DNA from: an uncultured Acidobacteriota bacterium
Lineage (GTDB): Bacteria; Acidobacteriota; JAQAZP01
Length of the DNA: 64,000 nucleotides
Assembly: GCA_963836075.1 (NCBI GenBank)
Contig: CAWIIB010000001.1
Location: forward strand, 704,001 to 768,000
Reading direction: 5' to 3'
A program made the translations under genes and the position numbers. Positions 5,407 to 57,410 of the stretch are shown in pieces. The notes beneath the pieces were generated by a model. That model searched no databases. It saw only the letters and a program-made list of their open reading frames with translations, and was not told the DNA's origin. Position 1 is the first letter of the stretch. Each line of letters starts with the position of its first letter.

Positions 5407-6705
5407 CTACCCCTTTCCGTGGATCTCATTCCCCCTGCCGGCGCCGGCGCCCGGCTCCGGGTGGAGCATGAAGGGCAGATCCTTGCGAAACCCCAGCCTC
5501 GCCCGGATCCGGTCCAGCAGTCCCGGCGGGTCTCCGACCACCAGCCGTTCCACCTGGCCGCCGCCGGAGGCGAGACGCACCCGGCTGAACGGCCTGCCTG
5601 CCGCCTCGAACAGCGGCAGGTGCTCGGTCCGGCCCAGCAAGGGCCGGCCGCCGCACAGCAGCAGGTAAATGTCCGTCGCGCCGGCGTCAACCAGGGCGGC
5701 ATACGGATCGCCCACCGGCCCTTCCGGCGCCAAACAAAGAATGTCCGCCTGAAAACCCTCGGCCAGACGGCCCACCAGGCGCTCCATCCGCAGGGCGCGG
5801 GCCGCGTTGACCGTCACCATGCGGAAGAGTTCCCGGGCCGGCAACGCCTCCCCGTAGCGCTCATTGTAGCAGGTGCGGGCCACCCGCATCTCCTGCAGCA
5901 GTCCGGATGTTCCGGTGAACAGGGAGTCGGTGCCCAGGCAGACGTTCACCCCGGTCCGCCGCAACTGCCTGATGTCGGTGGTCTTGCCGAACATGAACAG
6001 GTTGGAACCGGGACACCAGGCAAGGCTGGCCCCCCGCCGGGCGGTCAGGGCTGCGTCCCGGGCGGTGAAGGCCACCCCGTGGATCAGCAGGGTGTGCGGC
6101 CCCAGGGCCCCGAGGGTGTCCAGTGTCTCCAACTCGGCCCGGGTCTCCGGATCGTGCCCCTCGCCAGCGTGAACCATGAACGGCTGGTCCCGGTCACCGG
6201 CCCGGGCATACTCCACCGCGGGCCCGTCCCCCCAGCGCAGCCGGAACGAGGCCACCGAGTGGGCCAGGCAGTATGGCGCCGCCACCCGCACCGGCATGGC
6301 ATGGAGATGGGGGGCTGAGATGTGCGGCGGAATGTGATCGGCCACGGTGGTGACCCCGGAGAGGATCGATTTCAGTCCGGCCAGCTGGTACACCGTGCCC
6401 GCGTCGATCATGTTCCGCTGCCGGAACACCGCTGACCGCTTGAGGTCGTTGTCCCAGTGCAGCCAGTTGAGATACGGGCCGAACCCCACCCGCGGCTGAA
6501 AGGTGCCGATGAGGTGGTCGTGGGCGTTGACCAGACCTGGATAGAGCAGCGCCGTGGGCGGCAGGGAGAGCGGGTACACGCCGTCCCCGGAATCAGCCGG
6601 GCCGTCCAGGGCCTCGATCAGCCCCAAAGCGCCGGCGCGAATCCGGCCGTTGGCCTGCGTCCCCTCCGCCGTGACACGAAGACCGTTGATCAGTTCCAGG
6701 ATCAC
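5407..6705 (-). CDS. Amidohydrolase family protein (MtaD/SsnA-like deaminase fold)
   Basis: PGLVNAHDH, VHAGEG, LIHG, LGTDS motifs; the start at GTG 6705 is an estimate. Confidence 0.85.
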   Translation of the reverse strand: MILELINGLRVTAEGTQANGRIRAGALGLIEALDGPADSGDGVYPLSLPPTALLYPGLVNAHDHLIGTFQPRVGFGPYLNWLHWDNDLKRSAVFRQRNMIDAGTVYQLAGLKSILSGVTTVADHIPPHISAPHLHAMPVRVAAPYCLAHSVASFRLRWGDGPAVEYARAGDRDQPFMVHAGEGHDPETRAELETLDTLGALGPHTLLIHGVAFTARDAALTARRGASLAWCPGSNLFMFGKTTDIRQLRRTGVNVCLGTDSLFTGTSGLLQEMRVARTCYNERYGEALPARELFRMVTVNAARALRMERLVGRLAEGFQADILCLAPEGPVGDPYAALVDAGATDIYLLLCGGRPLLGRTEHLPLFEAAGRPFSRVRLASGGGQVERLVVGDPPGLLDRIRARLGFRKDLPFMLHPEPGAGAGRGNEIHGKG

Positions 6706-6954
6706 GTCAGATAACCCCGCTCGATATACTGCCCACGTTCCCAAAAAGTATATTGGCGCACTCCGGGCCCCGTCAATTGACCGGCGGCGGGACCGCTTCC
6801 CATATTTTCCATCTGGATCGCTAATGAAAAGTCTTCCATCGGGCGATACGTTAGAGTGAGGTTGTTCGACCGGCCCGCCGGGAAGCCGGTTCAAAGCCGG
6901 CGAGCCCGGGGGTCAACGGCGGTATTTCTTCCGCCTGTTCTGTAGAGGGGCAGC

Positions 6955-7347
6955 ATGAAGGACACAGCGTCAACGGTTATCGATACCGGCCACAAGGACA
7001 TCACGGCCAGTGTCCGGAAAAGCCGCAGAAACAAGGCGCGGATGGAACTCAATGTGAAGGTCGAATACCGTACCCTCGACGCCGTGTTGTGGAACTTCTC
7101 CACCAACATCAACGAGGGCGGGATCTTCATCCGGTCCAACCGGCCCCAGCCGCCGGGAACCGTGGTTCACCTCCGCTTCTTTCTCCCCGACGTGCTCAAG
7201 GCGATCCATGTGGAGGGAGAGGTGGTCTGGTGCAACGACGACCCCCAGGCCGGGGAGTGCGGGATGGGTATCGAGTTCCATGAACTGCGCGGCGGGGACA
7301 AGCGGCTGATCGACCAGCTGATCACCGGTAAACGCATGGAGGACTGA
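6955..7347 (+). CDS. PilZ domain protein (TIGR02266-like; probable c-di-GMP receptor)
   Basis: RRNKAR (RxxxR), NINEGGIFI (D/NxSxxG-like), GEVVW, GMGIEF. Confidence 0.88.
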   Translation: MKDTASTVIDTGHKDITASVRKSRRNKARMELNVKVEYRTLDAVLWNFSTNINEGGIFIRSNRPQPPGTVVHLRFFLPDVLKAIHVEGEVVWCNDDPQAGECGMGIEFHELRGGDKRLIDQLITGKRMED

Positions 7348-7362
7348 GACCCGCCCGGGCGC

Positions 7363-8959
7363 TCACTCCTCTTCCCCCACCAGCAGCCGTGCCATGCCGC
7401 GGCAGCGCAGCCGCTCCTCCAGGACCCCGGTGGATCCGGCCGGCCGGCCGGCAAAGGGCCGCCCCAGATCATTCCAGGACCACGGTCTGTCCGCCCCCAG
7501 CAGCGTCTCCATCTCCTGCCCCAGCTGCGGCAGCACCGGTGTGAGCAGAATGGCCAGGTCGCGGCAGACGGACAGCACGGGGCTCGAGCCGTCCTGCGCC
7601 GCTCGAACCAGTTCCCGCACTCCGGCCAGCGCCCGCTGGCAATCGATCCGCGCGTAGGCCTCGCCGATGCCGGCATAGAGCTGGAGCAGCGCCTCGGGCA
7701 CCGGCGCCGTGGCGGACAACCTGCCGCTGCCACCCCCCGTCTCAAGGGATTCGCCGATGAACCGCAGGATCTGTCCCCCCAGTTCCTCGTTCACTCTGGC
7801 CGCTAACCGGCCCGGGCTGATGTCGATCTCCTCCAGCCCGGGGCCCATCCGGCTGGCCAGTGCATAGCGCAGGCACTCGGGGTCGGCGCCGGCCGCCAGG
7901 TTCCGGGCGATGATCCGCGGCCCGTGCCGGCCGGCCACCCGCCGGCCGTCCAGGTTGAGAAACCCCTGGGCCACGATCCTGTCGGGCAGGCTGAAATCGG
8001 CCCCCATCAGCATCGCCGGCCAGAACAGGGTGTGGAAGGCGATGATGTCCCGGCGGACGAACTGCACGATCTCGCTCTCCCCGTCGTGCCAGGTACGGTT
8101 CCCGTCCCGGCCCGGACCGGGGGCCGTGGCCCGCCGTGCCCGACAGGTAGCCCAGCGGGGCATCGAGCCAGACACAGAAGAATTTTTTTAGTTCCCCGGG
8201 AACCGGGAACCCGAAGTAGGGCCCGTCCCGGCTGATGCACCAGTCGTCCAGCCCCTCCCGCAGCCGGCCGGCCACCCACTGCTCCACTTCCGGCTGCAGC
8301 CCGCCGCCGGAGCGGACCCAGGAAGTCAGCCGGCCGGAGAACTCGCTGAGCCGGAAAAAGTAGTGGCGCGAGAGACGCTGCTCCGGTTCGGCCCCACAGG
8401 TCGGGCAGCGGGTCGACTGTGTGTGGGATGGGTGGTCGGTGCCGCTGCAGACCGGGCAGAGCATACCGTTGCGCACCGCGGCTCCGCACCCGGGACAGCG
8501 ACCGCGGTCAAAACGGTCGGGGAGGAAGCGGCGGCAGCAGCCGCAGTAGTCGAGGAGGACCTCCTTCTCGTAGATATACCCTTTTTCCTTCAGCCGGTTG
8601 AACACCAGCACACTCAGTTCCCGGTTGTTCTCGCCATGGGTGGAGCAGAAGGTGTCGAACTCGATGTGCAGCGAGCCAAAATCGTGCAGGTGCTCTTCGT
8701 GGTAGTGGTCGGCCAGCTGTTTCGGCGGCACCCCTTCGGCAGCGGCGCTCATCCGCACCTCGGTGCCGTGGCTGTCCGCGCCGCCGATGAAGATCGCCTC
8801 CCGTCCCGCCAGCCGCAGGAATCGGGCGTAGATGTCGGCCTGCAGGGCATCCACCAGCTGGCCCAGCATCAGGGGGCTGCTGGCGTAGGGGAAAGAGCTG
8901 GTCAGCAGGACCCTCCGCGACATCTCGGCGGAACTGTACGGCCGGGGGACGGCGGTCAT
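7363..8959 (-). CDS. Methionyl-tRNA synthetase paralog with degenerate catalytic motifs, split by a frameshift near 8095-8135
   Basis: Colinear with MetG (PYA, ADSHGT, FLPDRF, CxxC knuckles, ISRDGPYFGF, VWLDAPLGY, FHTLFWPAML, LRY, LTPVLP) across two overlapping ORFs; HIGH reads MLGQ and KMSKS reads RVAGR. Confidence 0.85.
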
Positions 8960-9073
8960 GGTACTTGATTCTCCGGTTCGGGTTTCTTCCTCGAGCGACG
9001 TATGGTATTACAACAGCTTGCCGCGGGTAAACCCGGGCCGGCCAGCGGCCCGCTGCTGCGGATTCGAGGCCCG

Positions 9074-9586
9074 ATGACCACACATGAAGATGATACCACC
9101 TGCCGCCTGCGGCCGTTCCGGCCCGACGACCTGCCGCAGCTGGTGCGGCTGGACCGCCGCTGTTTCTCCCCCGACATCGCCTACGACCACTCCGAGATGG
9201 TCTACCACCTCACCGCCCCCCGCCACACCTGTCTGCTGGCCGTCCCCCGGGACGACTCCACTCCCGCACTGCTCGGTTTCGTCATCGTTGCCGTGGGGAA
9301 AGCGAGCCGGGAGGGGCAGATCGTCACCATCGACGTGGACCCCGATGCCCGCCGCCGGGGCATCGGCCGGCGGCTGCTGCTGGCCGCGGAAAAGCTGCTG
9401 GCCGGCCGCCGCAACCGGTCGGTGCGGCTGCAGGTGGCCGAGGACAACGCCGGCGCCCAAAGGTTTTACGAGGAGATGGGCTACCAGCAGGCGGGGCGCC
9501 ACCCCGGCTATTACGCCGACGGGACCAACGCCATCGAGATGGTCAAGAAACTCAGCGCACCGGGAAACAGACGTAGCGCAGAATGA
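9074..9586 (+). CDS. GNAT N-acetyltransferase, RimI-like
   Basis: IVTIDVDPDARRRGIGRRLL (motif A), LQVAEDNAGAQRFYEEMGY, YYADGTNAIEM. Confidence 0.88.
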   Translation: MTTHEDDTTCRLRPFRPDDLPQLVRLDRRCFSPDIAYDHSEMVYHLTAPRHTCLLAVPRDDSTPALLGFVIVAVGKASREGQIVTIDVDPDARRRGIGRRLLLAAEKLLAGRRNRSVRLQVAEDNAGAQRFYEEMGYQQAGRHPGYYADGTNAIEMVKKLSAPGNRRSAE

Positions 9587-10880
9587 AGAGCAGGGCCACC
9601 AGGTAGAGCAGCCAGCTCACCTTGCGCCCCCGGCCGGAGAGCAGCATGATCAGCGGGTAGGCGATGAAGCCCAGGGCCAGCCCGTCGGAGATGCTGAAGC
9701 AGAAGGGAATGCCGGCCAGGATGAGGAAGGCCGAGATCCCCTCGGCCGGTTCCTTCCAGTCGATCCCGCTGACCCCGCGGATCATCATCGCCCCCACCAC
9801 CACCAGCGCCGGGGCGGTGATCGGCGGGTAGGTGCCCACCATGGCGGCCAGTGGGGTGAAGAAGAGCGCCAGCAGGAAAAGCAGCCCGGTGACCACGCTG
9901 GTCAACCCGGTGCGTCCCCCCTGCTCCACCCCCACCGCACTCTCGGCGTAGGTGGTCACCGTGCTGGTGCCCATGCAGGCGCCGGCCACGGTGCCCACCG
10001 CGTCGGCCATCAGCGCCCGGTTGGCCCGGGGCAGCTTGTTGTCCTTCATGAACCCGCCCTGCTGCCCCACCCCCACCAGGGTGCCCACGGTGTCGAACAT
10101 GTCCATGAAGAGAAAGATGATGATGAAGGGCAGGAAACGAAGGTCAAAAGCAGCCAGCAGATCGAAACCGAAGAACGCGTGATCCCGCGGCAGCCCGAAG
10201 AAACCGTCGAACCGGACCTTGCCCAGAAAGAGCGAGACCAGCGTGGCCGCCAGCAGTGCCCAGAGCACCGCCCCCCTGACCCGCAGCGCCATCAGAACCC
10301 CGGTGAGCAGCAGGCCAATCAAAAAAACCAGCAGGTCCACCGACAGCAGGTCGGGGTTCATGGTCAACCCGGTGGCCGGTGACCGCACCACCAGCCCGGC
10401 GTTCTGCATACCGATGAGGGCGATGAACAGACCGATGCCGGCGGCGATCCCCGACTTGAGGCCCGGGGGGATGGCGGTGATCACCGCTTCCCTGATCTTC
10501 AGCAGGTTGAGCAGAAAAAAGAGCACGCCGGAGATCAGCACGATGCCCATGGCCACCCGCCACGCATCGGCCACCCCCATGGCCACCAGCGACATGATCA
10601 CGGTGACGAAGAAGTAGTTCTCCCCCATCCCCGGCGCCAGGGCAAAAGGGTAGTTGGCCCAGAGGCCCATGATCATGGTGGCCAGGAAGGCGGAGAGACA
10701 GGTGGCCAGCATCACCGCGTCGGCGGACAGCCCGGTGGGGTTGCCGGCAAAGTCGGTGGAGAGCACCGCCGGCTGGAGAAAGATGATGTAGGACATGGTG
10801 ATGAAGGTCACCACCCCGGCGCCCACTTCCGTGCGCACCGTGGTGCCCGCATCACGCAATCCGAACAACCGTTCCAGCAT
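9552..10880 (-). CDS. NCS2/AzgA family purine (guanine/hypoxanthine) permease
   Basis: TTVRTEVGAGVVTFITMSYI, ALAPGMGENYFF, DMFDTVGTL, ESAVGVEQGGRTGLT; many TM segments. Confidence 0.93.
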   Translation of the reverse strand: MLERLFGLRDAGTTVRTEVGAGVVTFITMSYIIFLQPAVLSTDFAGNPTGLSADAVMLATCLSAFLATMIMGLWANYPFALAPGMGENYFFVTVIMSLVAMGVADAWRVAMGIVLISGVLFFLLNLLKIREAVITAIPPGLKSGIAAGIGLFIALIGMQNAGLVVRSPATGLTMNPDLLSVDLLVFLIGLLLTGVLMALRVRGAVLWALLAATLVSLFLGKVRFDGFFGLPRDHAFFGFDLLAAFDLRFLPFIIIFLFMDMFDTVGTLVGVGQQGGFMKDNKLPRANRALMADAVGTVAGACMGTSTVTTYAESAVGVEQGGRTGLTSVVTGLLFLLALFFTPLAAMVGTYPPITAPALVVVGAMMIRGVSGIDWKEPAEGISAFLILAGIPFCFSISDGLALGFIAYPLIMLLSGRGRKVSWLLYLVALLFILRYVCFPVR

Positions 10881-11054
10881 CGGCTCCCCCTCGCTTGTTC
10901 AGGCCAGTATCTTCGCCGCCCTGGAAAGCTGTCAAGCAGCTGATCCAATTGATTCCCCCACACCTCCATGCTATTTTTGATCACGGGGTTATCAATCAAC
11001 CGGCGACCCGGCCAGTGCTCGAGACCGGTCCGCCGGCCCGGGCCGGAGGGAACC

Positions 11055-14000
11055 ATGGCGCGAAAAGAGGGAACCCGTGCGGGCGGCCTTCCCGGTTCGC
11101 CGGCGGCCTGGTTGTTGTCCCTGTCCTTCGCCCTGCTGCTCCCCGACCTGGCCCTGGGGTTCACCCTGCCCCTGCTGCTGGCCGTCGTGCTGCCCGGGAT
11201 CCTCGTCGCCGTTGCCCTTTCCTTTCTTCGAGGCTCCGTTCTTCGCCGTTCATCCATGGCCGTGCTGGCGGCACTGGTGATTCTGCTGCTGCTGATCTCG
11301 ATCAGTGCCCGGGTCATTCCCGTCCCCCTGGCCGGTAAACCGGCCTCGGAGCCGGACCGGGCCGAACTGGCGGAAGCGGCCCAGGCCGACTTCAACCGGC
11401 TGCTGAGCCGGCTCTCCTCCATCGCCGCGGTGCTGGCCCGGGACGAGACGGTGCACCGTGTGCTGACACGGCAGGGGAACCACGTGGAAGACCACATGGC
11501 GCTCTTCGAGGCCGCCCGGGCGGCCCTGGGAGACCAGGACGGCGGCAGCCTGGCCGGCATCACCCTCTACGACCGCAACGGCGTACCGCTGGCCTGGGCC
11601 GGGCAGGCGTCGAGCCTCGAAGCGCAACTGCTGGCCAACGCCCCGCTGAGCCCGGTGGAGGGGCAGGCGCGGCACTACACACCGCAGTTCAGTATCCGCC
11701 GCTACAACCGGCTGGCCTCCCGGCTCTACTGCATCCAGCCCTTTGTGCTCACCCCTCCCGGCAAGGAGGCGGGCAGCGCAGAGAGCGCGTACCTGGAACA
11801 GGTGGAGACGCTGTTCGCGGTGAGCGAGCGGCTGCTGGATACCGGGCGGGGCCGCTTCCGCCGCACCCTGATCGGCGGTTTTTTCCCGCCATCGCTGGAG
11901 GCCGCCACCCTGGCGGAGGGCGTGACCCTGCAGTACCAGCTGCTGCCGGTGGAGTTTTCCGGGACGGAGGACGGGTTCCGGGAAGAGGACAGGGCGGCCC
12001 GCTTCCCCATCATTTTCCCCGACGGCACAATGCTGGGGGAGCTGGCCATCTCGCAGCAGGCTGGCGGCGGTCCCCCGTCCCTCTCTCCGGCCCGGGTGCG
12101 GCTGGCCCTGCTGGGGGGCCTGCTGGTGGCCCTGGCCATCCTGGTGGCCGGGCTGGTGGCGGCCCGGCGGTCATTCATGGCGGACAGTACCCCCGCGGCC
12201 GCCGGGGCCCATGCGGTTCTGGCCACGGGCGCAGCCCTGCTGCTGCGCTCGGTCCCCAACTGGCCTTCCATCCGGCCGGCGCTGCCCGAGTGGCAACTGC
12301 TGGAACCGGTCTACCTCTCCCTGGAGACACCGCTCCAGTTGCTGGGGTCGCCGTTCGATTTTCTGGCCAGCAGCCTGGTCTTTTTCACCATTGCCGGCTA
12401 TGCCGCCCTGCTGGCCTGGCACCACCGGCGAGGGCAGCATTCCCCGCCGGCCACCGGAGGCTGGCTGCAGATCGTTCCGGCATCACTGCTCCACGGCAGC
12501 CTGGTGCTGGCCCTGCACCTGCTGGTGGCCTCGGTGGTCATCCGCGCCCCGGCGGAGATCACCAACTTCGGCAGCCTGCTGGGCTTCGACCCGGTGAGTG
12601 CCGTGCGCAACGGTCTAATCCTCTTCGCCCTGGGTGTGGCCCTGGCCGGCACTGCCCTGGCCCTGCGGGCCGCCGCCCTGCGCACCCGGGCGGCGCTGCT
12701 CGCCTGGATGATCCCCGGACCGCTCCTGCTGGTGGTGGCAGCCTGGCTGGGACCTCGGGCGTTGATTCCGGCTGACGGCAGCGAAGGCACCGTCTTCGGG
12801 CTCACCGCCGCCCTGGACGCCTCCTGTCTCACCGCCCTGGTGCTCTTCCATCTGCTGCCCCTGCTGGTGGCCGCCGGAGCCCTGCAGCCGCCCCGAAGCA
12901 CCGGGTCTCGCATCCCCCACGCCGCCGTCCCGGCCCTCTTCTCGCTGCTGCTGCTTCCGGCGCTGCTCTTCCAGTTCGTGGTCACCCACCACCTGGAACT
13001 GGCCCGGGAGCGCTATATCGGCCAGGAGCTGATGGAGGAAGTGGCCCGGATGGGAGAGCACCGGGCTTCCCTGCTGGACCAGGCCTTCGAGCAGGCAGAG
13101 ACCCGTATCCAGCCGCTGGCCGCCCGGCTGGTGGCCGGGCAGCCCTCGGACATCCCGGGTCTGGCCTACAGTTTCTGGTCCGAAACGCTGATCTCCGAGC
13201 TGGGCTACGGCTCTTCGGTGGAGGTTTTCGGCGATGAGGGGAACCTGGTCAGCGGCTTCACCTACGAGCTGCCGAAGAAGGGGGTCGAAGCGGTGCAACT
13301 GACCGGGCTGGCCACCCCGGAAACGGCGGAAGGGATCATGCAACTGGGCAACCGCAGCCTGGTGGTGCTCTCCCGCAGCGAGGAGCTGCGCTGGCAGGAG
13401 CGCTCGGTGGGCACCCTGGTGCTCACCGTCACCGTGGACTACGCCGACCTCAGTTTTCTTGCCCGGCCCAACCCCTACCGGGAGATGCTTTCTCCGCTCC
13501 CCTCCGCCGGGCGCCTGAAAATGGAATCGCTGGGTGACAACCCGTTCCTCACCGTCTTCGGCGACGACGGCCGGATCATCTACTCCTCACGAGGCGACAG
13601 CCCCGCAGTAACGTCGCGGATCATCTCCGAACTGGAGCTGGTGCCCCACTCCCTGCTCTGGCGAGAGACCACCTTCCGGGACGGCCTGCACCGCGTGGCC
13701 TGGTTCGCCGACGACCAGGGCCGGATCTTCGCCCTGGGCTACCCGGTGCGCTCCTTTCGCGACCAGGTGGTACAGTGGCTGAGGCTGCTGCTGGCCTGCC
13801 TGCTGCTGCCCCTGCCGCCGGTACTGCTGTTGCTGCTGCTGCGGCTCAGCGCCGGCGGCCGGTTCTCCCCGCGCTCACTGCTGGCCTCCGCCACGCCCAG
13901 CTACTACCGCAAGATCCTCGCCGCCCTGCTGGCGGTGGTGATTCTGCCCCTGGGCCTGCTCTCCTTCCTGGTCACCCGGACCATGGGCAACTCGCTGGAG

Positions 14001-15752
14001 GACCAGTTGCGGGGGCAGGGCCGGCAGTCGCTCAACTCCGCCCGCCGGCTGGTGGAGGACTTCCTCAGCTCCCTCGACGAGGGTGAGACCCTGGACGATG
14101 TGCTGACCGACGACTTCCTGATCTGGGTCAGCCGGCTGGTGGACCAGGACCTCAACGTCTACCTCGGCTCCACCCTGGCCGCCACCAGCCGCCGCGAGCT
14201 GTTCTCCATCGGGCTGCTCCCCGACCGGCTGGAGGGCCCGGTCTACCTCGACCTCGACGTGCGGGGCCGCACCTTCCACGAGTCGCGTCGCAGCCTGGGC
14301 AGCGGCCGCTACCTGGTGCTCTCCACCCCGGTGCAGCTGCCCGGGTCTTCGCTGATGCCGGCGGTACTTTCCACGCCGCTGATGGCCCAGCAGCAGCAGA
14401 CCAACCGCACCCTGGCCCAGCTCAACGGCTCGGTACTGCTGGTCTTCTTCCTGCTGCTGCTGATCGCCCTGCTGGTGACCTGGCCGCTGGCCCAGCGGAT
14501 CACCGCCCCCATCAGAACCCTGGTGCGGGGCACGTCACAGATTGCCGAGGGCCGTCTGGACACCCGGATCGAGACGCGGTCGAGGGACGAGATCAAGACG
14601 CTGGTGGACGCCTTCAACACCATGGCGGAGAAACTGCAGAACCAGCGTGAAGCGCTGGAGCGTCGGCGGGACTATATCGAGAAGATCCTGGCCAACGCCG
14701 CCACCGGGGTCATCTCGCTCAACGAGCAGGGGCGGGTCACCACCATCAATCCCGCGGGCTTGCGGCTGCTGGGCCTCGACCAGTCCTACGGCCCGCTGGG
14801 CCGGCGGATCTCCGACCTGCTCTCCCGGCGGCCGGAGCTGGGCAGCCTGCTGGACACCGTGGAGCGTTACCTCAGCCAGCCGGCGGACGAGGAGCGGCGG
14901 CCCAACCAGCCGGTGCGCGAGGAGGAGGTGCGCATCCCCTCCCCCGGAGAGGCCGGGGCTGAGGAGGAACGGCTGCTGCACCTGGTCTTCGCCCCCCTGG
15001 GCAGCGACGAGGACCAGGGGCCCCGGGGCACGATCATGGTTTTCGAGGACATCTCCGGGCTGCTGCGGGCCAACCGGCTGAAAGCCTGGACCGAGATGTC
15101 ACGGCGCATCGCCCACGAGATCAAGAACCCGCTGACCCCGATCCAGCTGCACATGGAGCACCTGCTGCGGGTTCACCGGGACGGCGACCCGGAGTTCGGC
15201 AAGACGCTGCAGTTGAGCATCGACACGGTGCTGAAAAAAGTGGCGGAACTGCGGCAGATCGCCATCGAGTTCTCGGACTTCTCCCGGCACCTGGAGCTTG
15301 AACCGGAAGCCGGGGTGGACCCGGCGGCGCTGGTGGAGGAGGTGCTGGCCCCGTACGAGAGCAGCCTTCCGGATGAGCTGACCCTGGAACTGGCGGCCGG
15401 CCGGCCGCTGCCCACGGTGGCCGTGGACACCAGGCTGGTCAAGCGGGCCCTGGTGAACATCATCGAGAACGCCATCCAGTCGATGGAGGAGAGCCGGGGG
15501 ACGGTTCTGGTGGAAGTGGCCCGGGTGGAGCCGGAGGGTGTCTCCATCGCCGTCACCGACAGCGGTTCGGGAATGGACCGCGAGACCCTGGACAAGCTGT
15601 TCGAGCCCTACTTCTCCACCAAGAACACCGGCACCGGCCTGGGGTTGGCCATTGCCCGGCGGACCATCGTCGACCACGGCGGCCGTATCGGGGCGGTGAG
15701 CGAGCCGGGGAAGGGCACCACGGTCACCATCGTCCTGCCCGCGGAGAAGTAG
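11055..15752 (+). CDS. Very large multi-TM sensor histidine kinase (HAMP-PAS-HisKA-HATPase; NtrY-like C-terminus)
   Basis: WTEMSRRIAHEIKNPLTPIQL H-box, NIIENA, DSGSG, FEPYFSTKNTGTGLGL; HAMP (ITAPIRTLVRGTSQIAEG); about 1000 aa N-terminal membrane/periplasmic region. Confidence 0.93.
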   Translation: MARKEGTRAGGLPGSPAAWLLSLSFALLLPDLALGFTLPLLLAVVLPGILVAVALSFLRGSVLRRSSMAVLAALVILLLLISISARVIPVPLAGKPASEPDRAELAEAAQADFNRLLSRLSSIAAVLARDETVHRVLTRQGNHVEDHMALFEAARAALGDQDGGSLAGITLYDRNGVPLAWAGQASSLEAQLLANAPLSPVEGQARHYTPQFSIRRYNRLASRLYCIQPFVLTPPGKEAGSAESAYLEQVETLFAVSERLLDTGRGRFRRTLIGGFFPPSLEAATLAEGVTLQYQLLPVEFSGTEDGFREEDRAARFPIIFPDGTMLGELAISQQAGGGPPSLSPARVRLALLGGLLVALAILVAGLVAARRSFMADSTPAAAGAHAVLATGAALLLRSVPNWPSIRPALPEWQLLEPVYLSLETPLQLLGSPFDFLASSLVFFTIAGYAALLAWHHRRGQHSPPATGGWLQIVPASLLHGSLVLALHLLVASVVIRAPAEITNFGSLLGFDPVSAVRNGLILFALGVALAGTALALRAAALRTRAALLAWMIPGPLLLVVAAWLGPRALIPADGSEGTVFGLTAALDASCLTALVLFHLLPLLVAAGALQPPRSTGSRIPHAAVPALFSLLLLPALLFQFVVTHHLELARERYIGQELMEEVARMGEHRASLLDQAFEQAETRIQPLAARLVAGQPSDIPGLAYSFWSETLISELGYGSSVEVFGDEGNLVSGFTYELPKKGVEAVQLTGLATPETAEGIMQLGNRSLVVLSRSEELRWQERSVGTLVLTVTVDYADLSFLARPNPYREMLSPLPSAGRLKMESLGDNPFLTVFGDDGRIIYSSRGDSPAVTSRIISELELVPHSLLWRETTFRDGLHRVAWFADDQGRIFALGYPVRSFRDQVVQWLRLLLACLLLPLPPVLLLLLLRLSAGGRFSPRSLLASATPSYYRKILAALLAVVILPLGLLSFLVTRTMGNSLEDQLRGQGRQSLNSARRLVEDFLSSLDEGETLDDVLTDDFLIWVSRLVDQDLNVYLGSTLAATSRRELFSIGLLPDRLEGPVYLDLDVRGRTFHESRRSLGSGRYLVLSTPVQLPGSSLMPAVLSTPLMAQQQQTNRTLAQLNGSVLLVFFLLLLIALLVTWPLAQRITAPIRTLVRGTSQIAEGRLDTRIETRSRDEIKTLVDAFNTMAEKLQNQREALERRRDYIEKILANAATGVISLNEQGRVTTINPAGLRLLGLDQSYGPLGRRISDLLSRRPELGSLLDTVERYLSQPADEERRPNQPVREEEVRIPSPGEAGAEEERLLHLVFAPLGSDEDQGPRGTIMVFEDISGLLRANRLKAWTEMSRRIAHEIKNPLTPIQLHMEHLLRVHRDGDPEFGKTLQLSIDTVLKKVAELRQIAIEFSDFSRHLELEPEAGVDPAALVEEVLAPYESSLPDELTLELAAGRPLPTVAVDTRLVKRALVNIIENAIQSMEESRGTVLVEVARVEPEGVSIAVTDSGSGMDRETLDKLFEPYFSTKNTGTGLGLAIARRTIVDHGGRIGAVSEPGKGTTVTIVLPAEK

Positions 15753-56290: not shown

Positions 56291-56302
56291 AGTGTTCCCG
56301 TG

Positions 56303-56402
56303 TTCTCCGACCGCCCGGAGCTACGGGGTATGACAACCTATGGCCGCGGCGGCGACAGGGTTTCGCGGGAAACGGCGGAGCCTCCCCTTTTGGAAAGGAG
56401 AT
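56303..56402 (+). ncRNA. Moco RNA motif riboswitch, apparently the P3-less (Tuco-like) variant
   Basis: TCTCC...GGAGA P1 overlapping the SD; CAGGG...GGAAAC...GCCTCCC-TTTTGGAAAGGAG matches the 3' part of the E. coli moaA leader; directly upstream of moaA. Confidence 0.85.
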
Positions 56403-56405
56403 CCT

Positions 56406-57410
56406 GTGCCCACCCCGAGGCCCGGCCCAGATCAATCCCCCATGCAACCGCCACAGATTTCCCGGGGCTGTTATTTGCGGATTTCGGTCACTGACCGCTG
56501 CAACAACCGCTGTCGCTACTGCATGCCCCCCGGGGGGGCGATGCTCGCCCCGCCGGCACAGATCCTGCGCTACGAGGAAATCATCCGGGCGGCGGAACTG
56601 ATCCACCGGGTCCGGCCGCTGCGCAAGATCAGGGTCACCGGCGGCGAACCGCTGCTGCGCCGCGACCTCGCCTCCTTTGTCGGGCAGCTGCGCCGGCATT
56701 TCCCGGCCGCTGAACTGACCATGACCACCAACGGCACGGCCCTGGCCGGTGCGGCTGCCGCCCTCAAGCGCGCCGGGCTGTCCCGGATCAACGTCAGCCT
56801 CGACTCCATCGACCCCGAACTGTTCCATCGCAGCACCGGCTCCACCGATCCCGGCAAGGTGATCCGGGGTATCGACACCGCCCTGGAGGCCGGTCTGCGA
56901 CCATTGAAGCTGAACAGCGTGCTCCAGCGTTCCATAAATGCCGGCCAGATCCCCGACCTGGTGGCTTTCGCCGCCAGCCGGCAGTGCGAACTGCGATTCA
57001 TCGAACTGATGCGCATCGGTCCCGCTCGGCAGTTGGACGACGACGAGTATGTCCCGATGGCTGAGGCGCTGGAAATCCTCCGCCGCCGCTGGCCCGACAT
57101 CAGGCCGCTGGAACGCGGCGAAAACAGCCGGCGCTATCTCGTCCCCACCGGGGAAGGGCTGGCCCGGGTCGGCTTCATCGCCCCGGTGAGCCACCCCTTC
57201 TGCGGCCGTTGCGACCGCCTGCGTCTCGATTCACGGGGCCGTCTCCACGCCTGCCTGCGGCAGGGTGATCGGATCGACCTGCGGGCGATGATCCGCAACG
57301 GCGCCGATGACCAGTGGAGCCTGAGGCAGATCAGGCAGTTGCTGGAGGGCAAGGGTTCGCCGGGAACAGCCTGGGGTGGTGACACCCGGATGTTCTCCAT
57401 GGGCGGCTAG
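56406..57410 (+). CDS. moaA: GTP 3',8-cyclase MoaA (radical SAM)
   Basis: LRISVTDRCNNRCRYC, TGGEPLLR, RINVSLDS, FIELM, FCGRCDRLRL...C, C-terminal GG; GTG start after AAGGAG. Confidence 0.95.
   Translation: MPTPRPGPDQSPMQPPQISRGCYLRISVTDRCNNRCRYCMPPGGAMLAPPAQILRYEEIIRAAELIHRVRPLRKIRVTGGEPLLRRDLASFVGQLRRHFPAAELTMTTNGTALAGAAAALKRAGLSRINVSLDSIDPELFHRSTGSTDPGKVIRGIDTALEAGLRPLKLNSVLQRSINAGQIPDLVAFAASRQCELRFIELMRIGPARQLDDDEYVPMAEALEILRRRWPDIRPLERGENSRRYLVPTGEGLARVGFIAPVSHPFCGRCDRLRLDSRGRLHACLRQGDRIDLRAMIRNGADDQWSLRQIRQLLEGKGSPGTAWGGDTRMFSMGG

Follow-up and report, generated by a model that had tools for sequence, protein, structure and literature searches.

A selectively maintained methionyl-tRNA synthetase paralog with replaced active-site motifs in one lineage of Acidobacteriota

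Duplication and repurposing of aminoacyl-tRNA synthetases is a classic route of functional innovation, and HisZ, GluQ-RS, MshC, the cyclodipeptide synthases and the hydrazine synthetases are all synthetase-derived proteins that have taken on new jobs. Here we describe a gene derived from methionyl-tRNA synthetase (MetRS) at 7363..8959 on the minus strand of a 64,000-nucleotide stretch of DNA (the window; contig CAWIIB010000001.1 of assembly GCA_963836075.1, positions 704,001 to 768,000) from an uncultured Acidobacteriota bacterium. This MetRS-like gene is intact, is selectively maintained, is of the double-zinc-ribbon (archaeal/E. coli-like) type and is confined to one lineage.

HisZ, the regulatory subunit of ATP phosphoribosyltransferase, offers the best analogy for the way such a paralog might work. 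It is a paralog of histidyl-tRNA synthetase found beside the working enzyme, it does not aminoacylate, and its amino-acid recognition has been kept for regulation, according to the passages on HisZ in PMC9734150 and PMC10795190. HisZ is, however, a widespread class II protein with a known partner, HisG, whereas the MetRS-like paralog is a class I protein of a single lineage. A second comparison is with the cupin-associated MetRS paralogs that Aravind and colleagues described in 2010 (PMC2922099), today recognised as the MetRS-like domain of hydrazine synthetases (PMC12376268). The relevant passages of both papers present them as an extra bacterial double-zinc-ribbon copy set apart from protein synthesis. 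In contrast to the protein described here, their adenylation residues are intact, a cupin always accompanies them, and they are linked to an N-hydroxylase as well (PMC2922099, same passages). The genes around the MetRS-like paralog encode a PilZ protein, a GNAT acetyltransferase, an NCS2 permease, an amidohydrolase, a DAHP synthase/chorismate mutase and a HIT protein, with no cupin and no N-hydroxylating monooxygenase among them. Cyclodipeptide synthases are likewise class-I-derived Rossmann domains that kept the aminoacyl pocket and have no HIGH or KMSKS, as outlined in part of PMC2922099. They are small, highly diverged proteins resembling the tyrosyl- and tryptophanyl-tRNA synthetases, with defined catalytic residues, whereas the paralog has a full-length MetRS body. 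In our literature search the cupin-associated proteins, which are catalytically intact, were the sole extra MetRS paralogs in print, although supplements such as Additional file 1 of PMC2922099 might list others. The same search surfaced no MetRS-derived protein without catalytic motifs, and the terms "MetRS" and "methionyl" are absent from the main text of a 2022 review of synthetase duplications (PMC9437257, term search). What appears to be new, judging from the sequences, is a family of MetRS-derived pseudoenzymes.

The MetRS-like gene runs from an ATG at 8959-8957 to a TGA at 7365-7363 and is covered jointly by two overlapping open frames on the minus strand. The frame starting at 8959 matched positions 1-259 of the 391 of PF09334 (E 3.6e-76) and the frame ending at 7363 matched positions 274-386 (E 6.9e-23) in a Pfam search, bearing out the MetRS homology that a preliminary description of the DNA had assigned to this region. 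When one base is discounted, the frame is open over 1596 nucleotides without internal stops and comprises 531 codons plus the stop codon. A phmmer search of the PDB gave an E-value of 2.3e-101, and its alignment with PDB chains served to transfer the numbering of E. coli MetRS. For the ortholog from the congeneric genome G002, an AlphaFold2 model built on an 18-sequence alignment reached a mean predicted local distance difference test score (pLDDT) of 80.9 and a predicted template modelling score of 0.86, with low confidence limited to the zinc-knuckle loops and a few linkers. Foldseek returned MetRS structures exclusively from the PDB, and the E. coli MetRS entries scored 0.82-0.85 in template modelling (TM) score at 30-31% identity. 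With the canonical double-zinc-ribbon enzymes (E. coli 1QQT, 1F4L and 1PG0; Pyrococcus abyssi 1RQG) the paralog thus has in common the full fold, PF09334, four CxxC pairs and nine pocket residues. It differs from them in the replacement of HIGH, GKD, His323 and KMSKS and in the substitutions A12S and L13F; Asn391, the Trp461 segment, about 20 residues and the C-terminal tRNA_bind domain are missing. The paralog scored 415.3 bits against a cut-off of 587 for the NCBIfam equivalog NF001100, and 338.6 bits for the metG domain model TIGR00398, barely above its cut-off of 336.35. By predicted fold and descent the protein is a member of the MetRS family that lacks its functional hallmarks, namely HIGH, KMSKS and the anticodon readers, whereas the two NCBIfam models point in different directions. 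Having passed TIGR00398 by 2 bits, and with members of its clade labeled "methionyl-tRNA synthetase" by the Joint Genome Institute (JGI), it will enter metabolic reconstructions as an additional MetRS.

The apparent +1 frame break lies at a CC dinucleotide at 8092..8093 (minus strand), where one C is extra (TAC-C-TGG). In a DNA alignment with both congeneric orthologs this C was the sole indel whose length is not a multiple of three, and the remaining gaps amounted to just 9 bases absent from one ortholog. Contigs from four public sequencing runs (X1-X4) were aligned to the window; those of X2 do not bridge 8092/8093, and all three bridging contigs, from X1, X3 and X4, are without the extra C. 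The X1 contig (574 nucleotides, 7955-8529) showed no other difference from the window, while those of X3 and X4 are 90-99% relatives. X1 may be the source sample of the window, in which case it is an independent assembly but not independent evidence of occurrence. Because the extra C is absent from the bridging contigs and the orthologs are intact, the gene is intact and the frameshift is an assembly error or a minor variant. The frameshift that the preliminary description had proposed to fix from reads is accordingly spurious or, at the least, has not gone to fixation. Programmed +1 frameshifting was also considered and ruled out, as each ortholog is read in a single frame and the extra base is missing from a contig that otherwise equals the window. 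Separately, further apparent frameshifts in this 10-contig genome may likewise be assembly errors.

Among 41 genomes (the bacterium's own and 40 relatives), close matches to the N-terminal 275 residues were found only in two congeneric genomes, at 82% and 79% identity. All others, the unpublished genome G025 included, gave at most 44%, no higher than their own MetRS would give. A single-protein scan of genome contigs likewise recovered only the two congeneric metagenome-assembled genomes. The gene is present in 3 of 401 sampled Acidobacteriota genomes and in 1 of 227 genera. The two orthologs, from G001 and G002, are uninterrupted, one having 531 residues and the other 528. A collection of 5.8 billion proteins yielded 11 clusters (P0001-P0011) at 59-99% identity to the query, with the next match at 39%. 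These are 492-534 residues long apart from one fragment of 344; PF09334 is present, and the anticodon-domain and tRNA_bind Pfam families are absent. When 1.84 billion representatives were searched exhaustively with a profile, P0008 scored 938 bits and the next protein 469. The whole family is a single 50%-identity cluster, and the closest canonical proteins in the databases are 39-40% identical. The metagenome contig L027 carries a 69%-identical member, and the runs listed as containing the stretch are freshwater sediment, soil, salt-marsh and marine-sediment metagenomes, four of them verified by contig alignment; none of those listed is an RNA run, which is neutral with regard to expression. 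Orthologs with the same motif losses, which the preliminary description had proposed to collect, exist intact in two congeneric genomes and also in metagenomes. L032, 45% identical in its N-terminal region, was considered as a distant member and rejected, as its HIGH motif is intact and it is canonical.

The altered motifs proposed in the preliminary description were all read in the window and their codons located on the minus strand: HLGH has become MLGQ (residues 31-34, 8858..8869), HFIGKDI has become QFVRRDI (8044-8064) and KMSKS has become RVAGR (residues 340-344, 7927..7941). The second of these opens the former nucleotide-site strand QFVRRDI...FHTLFWPA (8014..8064), where G294R and K295R are substituted and D296, F300, H301 and W305 are kept. 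Residues were then tabulated for the 11 clade proteins, one of which is a C-terminal fragment, leaving 10 at N-terminal positions, and for the two unchanged halves of the window protein. With the window included this gives 11 sequences at N-terminal positions and 12 elsewhere, compared with 107 canonical proteins (P0012-P0120, after removal of 2 of 109 shorter than 500 residues). The two histidines of HIGH are gone throughout the clade: His21 (canonical, 107/107) is R, Q, G or M, with His in 0/11, and His24 (102/107) is Gln in 11/11. Glu27 (107/107) is Asp in 11/11. At the former nucleotide site His291 is Gln, Gly294 is Arg, Lys295 is Arg and His323 is Gln, each in 12/12 clade members as against 107/107 for the canonical residue. 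The KMSKS lysines are equally lost clade-wide, Lys332 (106/107) to Arg or Pro and Lys335 (107/107) to Gly, Ser or a gap, with Lys in 0/12 at both; P0010 carries a deletion at this loop. Such changes, shared by every one of the 11-12 clade sequences yet seen in no canonical relative out of 107, are far beyond chance. Nor was the clade signature found in any of 147 other top representatives of the exhaustive search, all of which have His21 and nearly all a K.SKS-type loop, a few short ones looking like fragments. The roles of the pocket and anticodon residues, including the ribose contact of Glu27, and the need for HIGH and KMSKS in adenylate formation by class I synthetases are taken from the sections of PMC10535265 that treat them.

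Six of the replacements are invariant in the clade (Gln34, Asp37, Gln299, Arg302, Arg303 and Gln331 in clade numbering), and at 20 positions a canonical residue conserved at 90% or more is swapped for a different clade residue conserved at 90% or more, the majority of them around the active site. Since the replacement residues are themselves invariant, the site appears remodelled and not degraded. In MetRS, Asp296 and His323 belong with Glu27 to the positions that touch the ribose and adenine. Asp37 (for Glu27), Asp304 (equivalent to Asp296) and Gln331 (for His323) are thus conservative at ribose- or adenine-contacting positions, with the phosphate-handling His and Lys residues gone. Such a pattern would fit an adenosine-bearing or anionic ligand handled without phosphoryl chemistry, for example the 3' end of an aminoacyl-tRNA.

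The amino-acid pocket, in contrast to the replaced motifs, is largely kept. Tyr15, Asp52, Trp253, Ala256, Pro257, Tyr260, Asp296, Phe300, His301 and Trp305 are invariant through the clade, and the pocket wall VWLDAPLGY (8147..8173, minus strand; E. coli W253, A256, P257 and Y260) is the same in 12/12 clade and 107/107 canonical sequences. The retention of the methionine pocket announced in the preliminary description accordingly stands for PY, the D of DSHG, the W, A, P and Y of VWLDAPLGY and the H and W of FHTLFWPA, and fails at two positions, as Ala12 has become Ser (Thr in one member) and Leu13 has become Phe throughout the clade. With both changed, methionine could have given way to an analogue of it or to a different ligand altogether. 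MetRS pockets have affinity for homocysteine, and this, together with A12S and L13F, makes homocysteine a candidate. The four CxxC pairs proposed earlier are also present, in a connective-peptide insert of the double zinc-ribbon type (8396..8545, minus strand; C139/142, C155/158, C168/171 and C185/188). All eight cysteines are invariant in the clade, the inner four aligning with E. coli C145/C148/C158/C161. In MetRS the zinc knuckles of the connective peptide face the tRNA acceptor arm.

The former anticodon-binding domain (7366..7815, minus strand) survives as a shortened helical domain, predicted confidently in the AlphaFold2 model (residues 421-500, pLDDT 83-96). As had been suspected, its anticodon-reading segment is missing: N..Y.Q..PW is gone from the window protein, and the roughly 20 residues that follow it are deleted in 12/12 clade sequences. 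The residues that read the CAU anticodon, Asn391, Arg395 and Trp461, are not kept as a set in the window. Asn391 is retained in 0/12 clade members, which have G, R or H instead; Arg395 survives in 9/12, though the window has Glu there; at most 3/12 (P0002, P0004 and P0009), the window not among them, have a Trp in line with Trp461, and this Trp may be a vestige of the lost segment. The absence of a C-terminal Trbp domain was confirmed in the Pfam search, where tRNA_bind (PF01588) was not matched.

Ratios of nonsynonymous to synonymous substitution rates (dN/dS) were estimated by the Nei-Gojobori method. Within the genus the MetRS-like gene gave 0.25-0.28, with 0.15-0.22 for its N-terminal and 0.35-0.49 for its C-terminal part, and comparison with L027 (dS 0.86-0.93) gave 0.27-0.29. 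Values for other genes were 0.13-0.17 (canonical metG), 0.13-0.20 (PilZ), 0.15-0.21 (permease) and 0.21-0.45 (GNAT). Changes were also counted by branch, a change being assigned to one of the three genus members when it occurs there alone and the remaining two are alike. Of these changes, 23.5 nonsynonymous and 34.5 synonymous ones fell on the window branch, a ratio of 0.68 that is close to the 0.67 and 0.73 of the intact G002 and G001 branches and thus speaks against relaxation on the window branch.

A quick maximum-likelihood tree was built from 50 rows, comprising 10 clade members, 2 Acidobacteriota double-zinc-ribbon MetRSs, 37 sampled canonical proteins and the bacterium's own metG as outgroup; the split window protein, the fragment P0011, and P0001 and P0003, which nearly duplicate G002 and G001, were excluded. 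The clade was monophyletic with a Shimodaira-Hasegawa-like approximate likelihood ratio (SH-aLRT) support of 100. Its stem measures 2.1 substitutions per site as against 0.06-0.43 for the branches within it, and the tree did not single out a sister group. As many rows, the clade included, are atypical in composition and the tree search was a quick one, we rely on it for nothing beyond the monophyly and the long stem. The shape of the tree is that of a single burst of change followed by conservation.

The canonical metG that the preliminary description had proposed to look for was found complete elsewhere in the genome. A PF09334 search of the whole genome (6.23 Mb in 10 contigs, 94.7% complete) uncovered a second MetRS gene at 1042-1044 kb of contig C1 (652-2574 of locus L002, minus strand), encoding 640 residues with HIGH, KMSKS, NRYFDHQAPW and a C-terminal tRNA-binding domain and scoring 813 bits against the NF008900 cut-off of 598. 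Canonical metG is also present in G001 and G002. This resident metG belongs to the other bacterial MetRS type and, as outgroup, lies at a path of 2.6 + 2.6 substitutions per site from the clade and its relatives, so the MetRS-like paralog is not a recent duplicate of it. Descent from a different MetRS lineage, with acquisition by transfer and not by local duplication, is suggested.

The MetRS-like protein probably binds something and does not charge tRNA. With the two HIGH histidines, the Gly-Lys of GKD, His323 and the two KMSKS lysines replaced, methionyl-adenylate formation should be lost, and with Asn391 and the Trp461 segment gone, reading of the CAU anticodon should be lost as well. The reading that we favour, with middling confidence, is that of a selected, non-aminoacylating binding or regulatory protein, HisZ-like in its logic. 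The features in which it resembles HisZ are coexistence with a complete housekeeping MetRS, loss of the catalytic residues, retention of most of the amino-acid site and purifying selection. Methionine or a close analogue such as homocysteine would be bound in the old pocket without catalysis, while the rebuilt nucleotide site would possibly hold an anionic or adenosine-containing group; the invariant Gln, Asp and Arg replacements argue for a new constrained site at the former ATP position. By analogy with HisZ and HisG, the protein might then act as a sensor or as a regulatory or adaptor subunit for some partner. A MetRS body with its adenylation residues swapped for a new conserved set and its pocket kept is in this sense a candidate methionine/homocysteine-type sensor or aminoacyl-ester binder. 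Several observations weigh against this reading. The locus context yielded no partner or regulatory link, and its gene order is conserved among close relatives only and so carries no functional link. The dN/dS is about twice that of canonical metG, with a looser C-terminal half, and the family is so narrow that its role could be marginal. Moreover, A12S and L13F differ clade-wide, so that methionine itself may not be the ligand, and it is just as possible that the newly invariant Ser22 and Arg302/Arg303 signal a novel catalytic centre.

That last point leads to an unlikely alternative, in which the protein is a repurposed catalyst with ATP-independent chemistry. It might, for example, accept a methionyl or similar aminoacyl group from Met-tRNA or some other activated ester, in the manner of cyclodipeptide synthases. 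The replacements are invariant and not scrambled, and they put a new Ser/Thr 22 (E. coli A12) beside the pocket and new arginines at 302 and 303. The acceptor-facing zinc knuckles are fully retained, and a protein that binds the acceptor end would not be hindered by the loss of anticodon reading. Derived class I synthetase domains without HIGH and KMSKS have a precedent in the cyclodipeptide synthases, in the account of them in PMC2922099. However, no biosynthetic or tailoring genes adjoin the MetRS-like gene, no set of catalytic residues can be named, and the distribution is very narrow.

A pure scaffold or adaptor, in which the fold was kept for protein-protein or RNA contacts with no small-molecule ligand, seems rather improbable to us. 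Many pseudoenzymes act in this way, and both the helical domain and the zinc knuckles are retained, but nine residues of the pocket are invariant in the clade, among them Asp52, which anchors the alpha-amino group, and this is difficult to account for if no ligand occupies the pocket.

Only a slight chance is given to a more specific proposal, that what the MetRS-like protein recognises is not free methionine and ATP but the methionyl ester carried on the Met-tRNA 3' end. The pocket would hold the methionyl group, Arg302/Arg303 and other arginines the phosphates of the CCA end, and the zinc-knuckle domain the acceptor arm. GNAT-fold enzymes that acetylate aminoacyl-tRNA or transfer from it exist, and the protein might sequester Met-tRNA or pass it to another enzyme, for which the divergently encoded RimI-like GNAT would be a candidate. 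Alternatively it might carry out methionyl transfer itself through Ser22, as a full-length analogue of the cyclodipeptide synthases.

An ordinary decaying pseudogene with a real frameshift is very hard to sustain. The +1 break in the window as assembled and the lost catalytic motifs would be expected of one, but the break is absent from 3/3 bridging contigs, one of them otherwise identical, and no internal stop appears once the extra base is discounted. The intact orthologs, the dN/dS of 0.25-0.29, the lack of a nonsynonymous excess or relaxation on the window branch, the canonical metG elsewhere and the invariance of the replacements all agree with the earlier view that this is not random decay. 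No more credible is an auxiliary functional MetRS, for instance an extra copy with unusual motifs that is used under stress or resists antibiotics. The narrow pass of TIGR00398 and the JGI naming would favour it, but NF001100 was missed by a wide margin (415 vs 587 bits), the anticodon residues are lost, and 147/147 other top representatives keep His21 and nearly all a K.SKS-type loop. Every member of the clade also lacks both HIGH histidines and both KMSKS lysines, needed for the adenylate according to PMC10535265. Membership in the cupin-associated paralogs is the least credible proposal, as the two share being bacterial double-zinc-ribbon MetRS paralogs beside a conventional MetRS (passages in PMC2922099 and PMC12376268) but that family keeps the adenylation residues that the MetRS-like clade has lost (PMC2922099, in the same part), the neighbours examined include neither a cupin nor a lysine N6-monooxygenase, and the clade stands alone as one 50% cluster.

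The gene neighborhood of the MetRS-like gene agrees with the convergent PilZ and divergent GNAT genes named in the preliminary description, both confirmed by Pfam matches. The PilZ-domain gene lies at 6955..7347 on the plus strand (PF07238, E 8e-16; TIGR02266, 76.4 bits against a cut-off of 68.7). The RimI-like GNAT acetyltransferase gene lies at 9074..9586, also on the plus strand (PF00583), and is the best RimI-like match of the genome, though at 71.2-71.3 bits it is under the 86.4-bit cut-off of TIGR01575 (rimI). The MetRS-like gene is monocistronic and none of its neighbours is co-directional with it. G001 and G002 have the same arrangement of PilZ, MetRS-like, GNAT and permease genes, and on L027 the order is NCS2 permease, divergent GNAT, MetRS-like gene, convergent PilZ, amidohydrolase, DAHP synthase/chorismate mutase and HIT. 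In the window the NCS2-type nucleobase permease gene (9552-10880, minus strand) was assigned by NCBIfam, and the amidohydrolase of the guanine-deaminase/TRZ-ATZ group (5407-6894, minus strand) remained far under every NCBIfam cut-off, with a best score of 92.6 against 540 bits. These two could be a purine-salvage pair. Beyond the permease, a very long open frame of 1594 residues occupies 10968-15752 on the plus strand, and its end was judged histidine-kinase-like by eye from the translation.

About 40-75 nucleotides upstream of the MetRS-like start codon lies a conserved non-coding element of some 35 nucleotides (8999..9033, minus strand), whose 15-nucleotide core is invariant in 4/4 loci, including the 69%-identical L027. 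The element is outside any GNAT reading frame in 2 of the 4 loci. With up to 2 mismatches allowed, the core occurs nowhere else in the genome; at 3 mismatches there is one match besides its own site. A sigma-70 consensus scan of 6800-9300 gave 0 matches, and no Rfam family matched 8800-9300 at E-values up to 1, hence no riboswitch or T-box clue. The element may well be a promoter or operator. Elsewhere in the window, at 56293-56416 on the plus strand, Rfam identified a molybdenum cofactor (Moco) riboswitch aptamer (RF01055) with 54.3 bits against a gathering score of 36.

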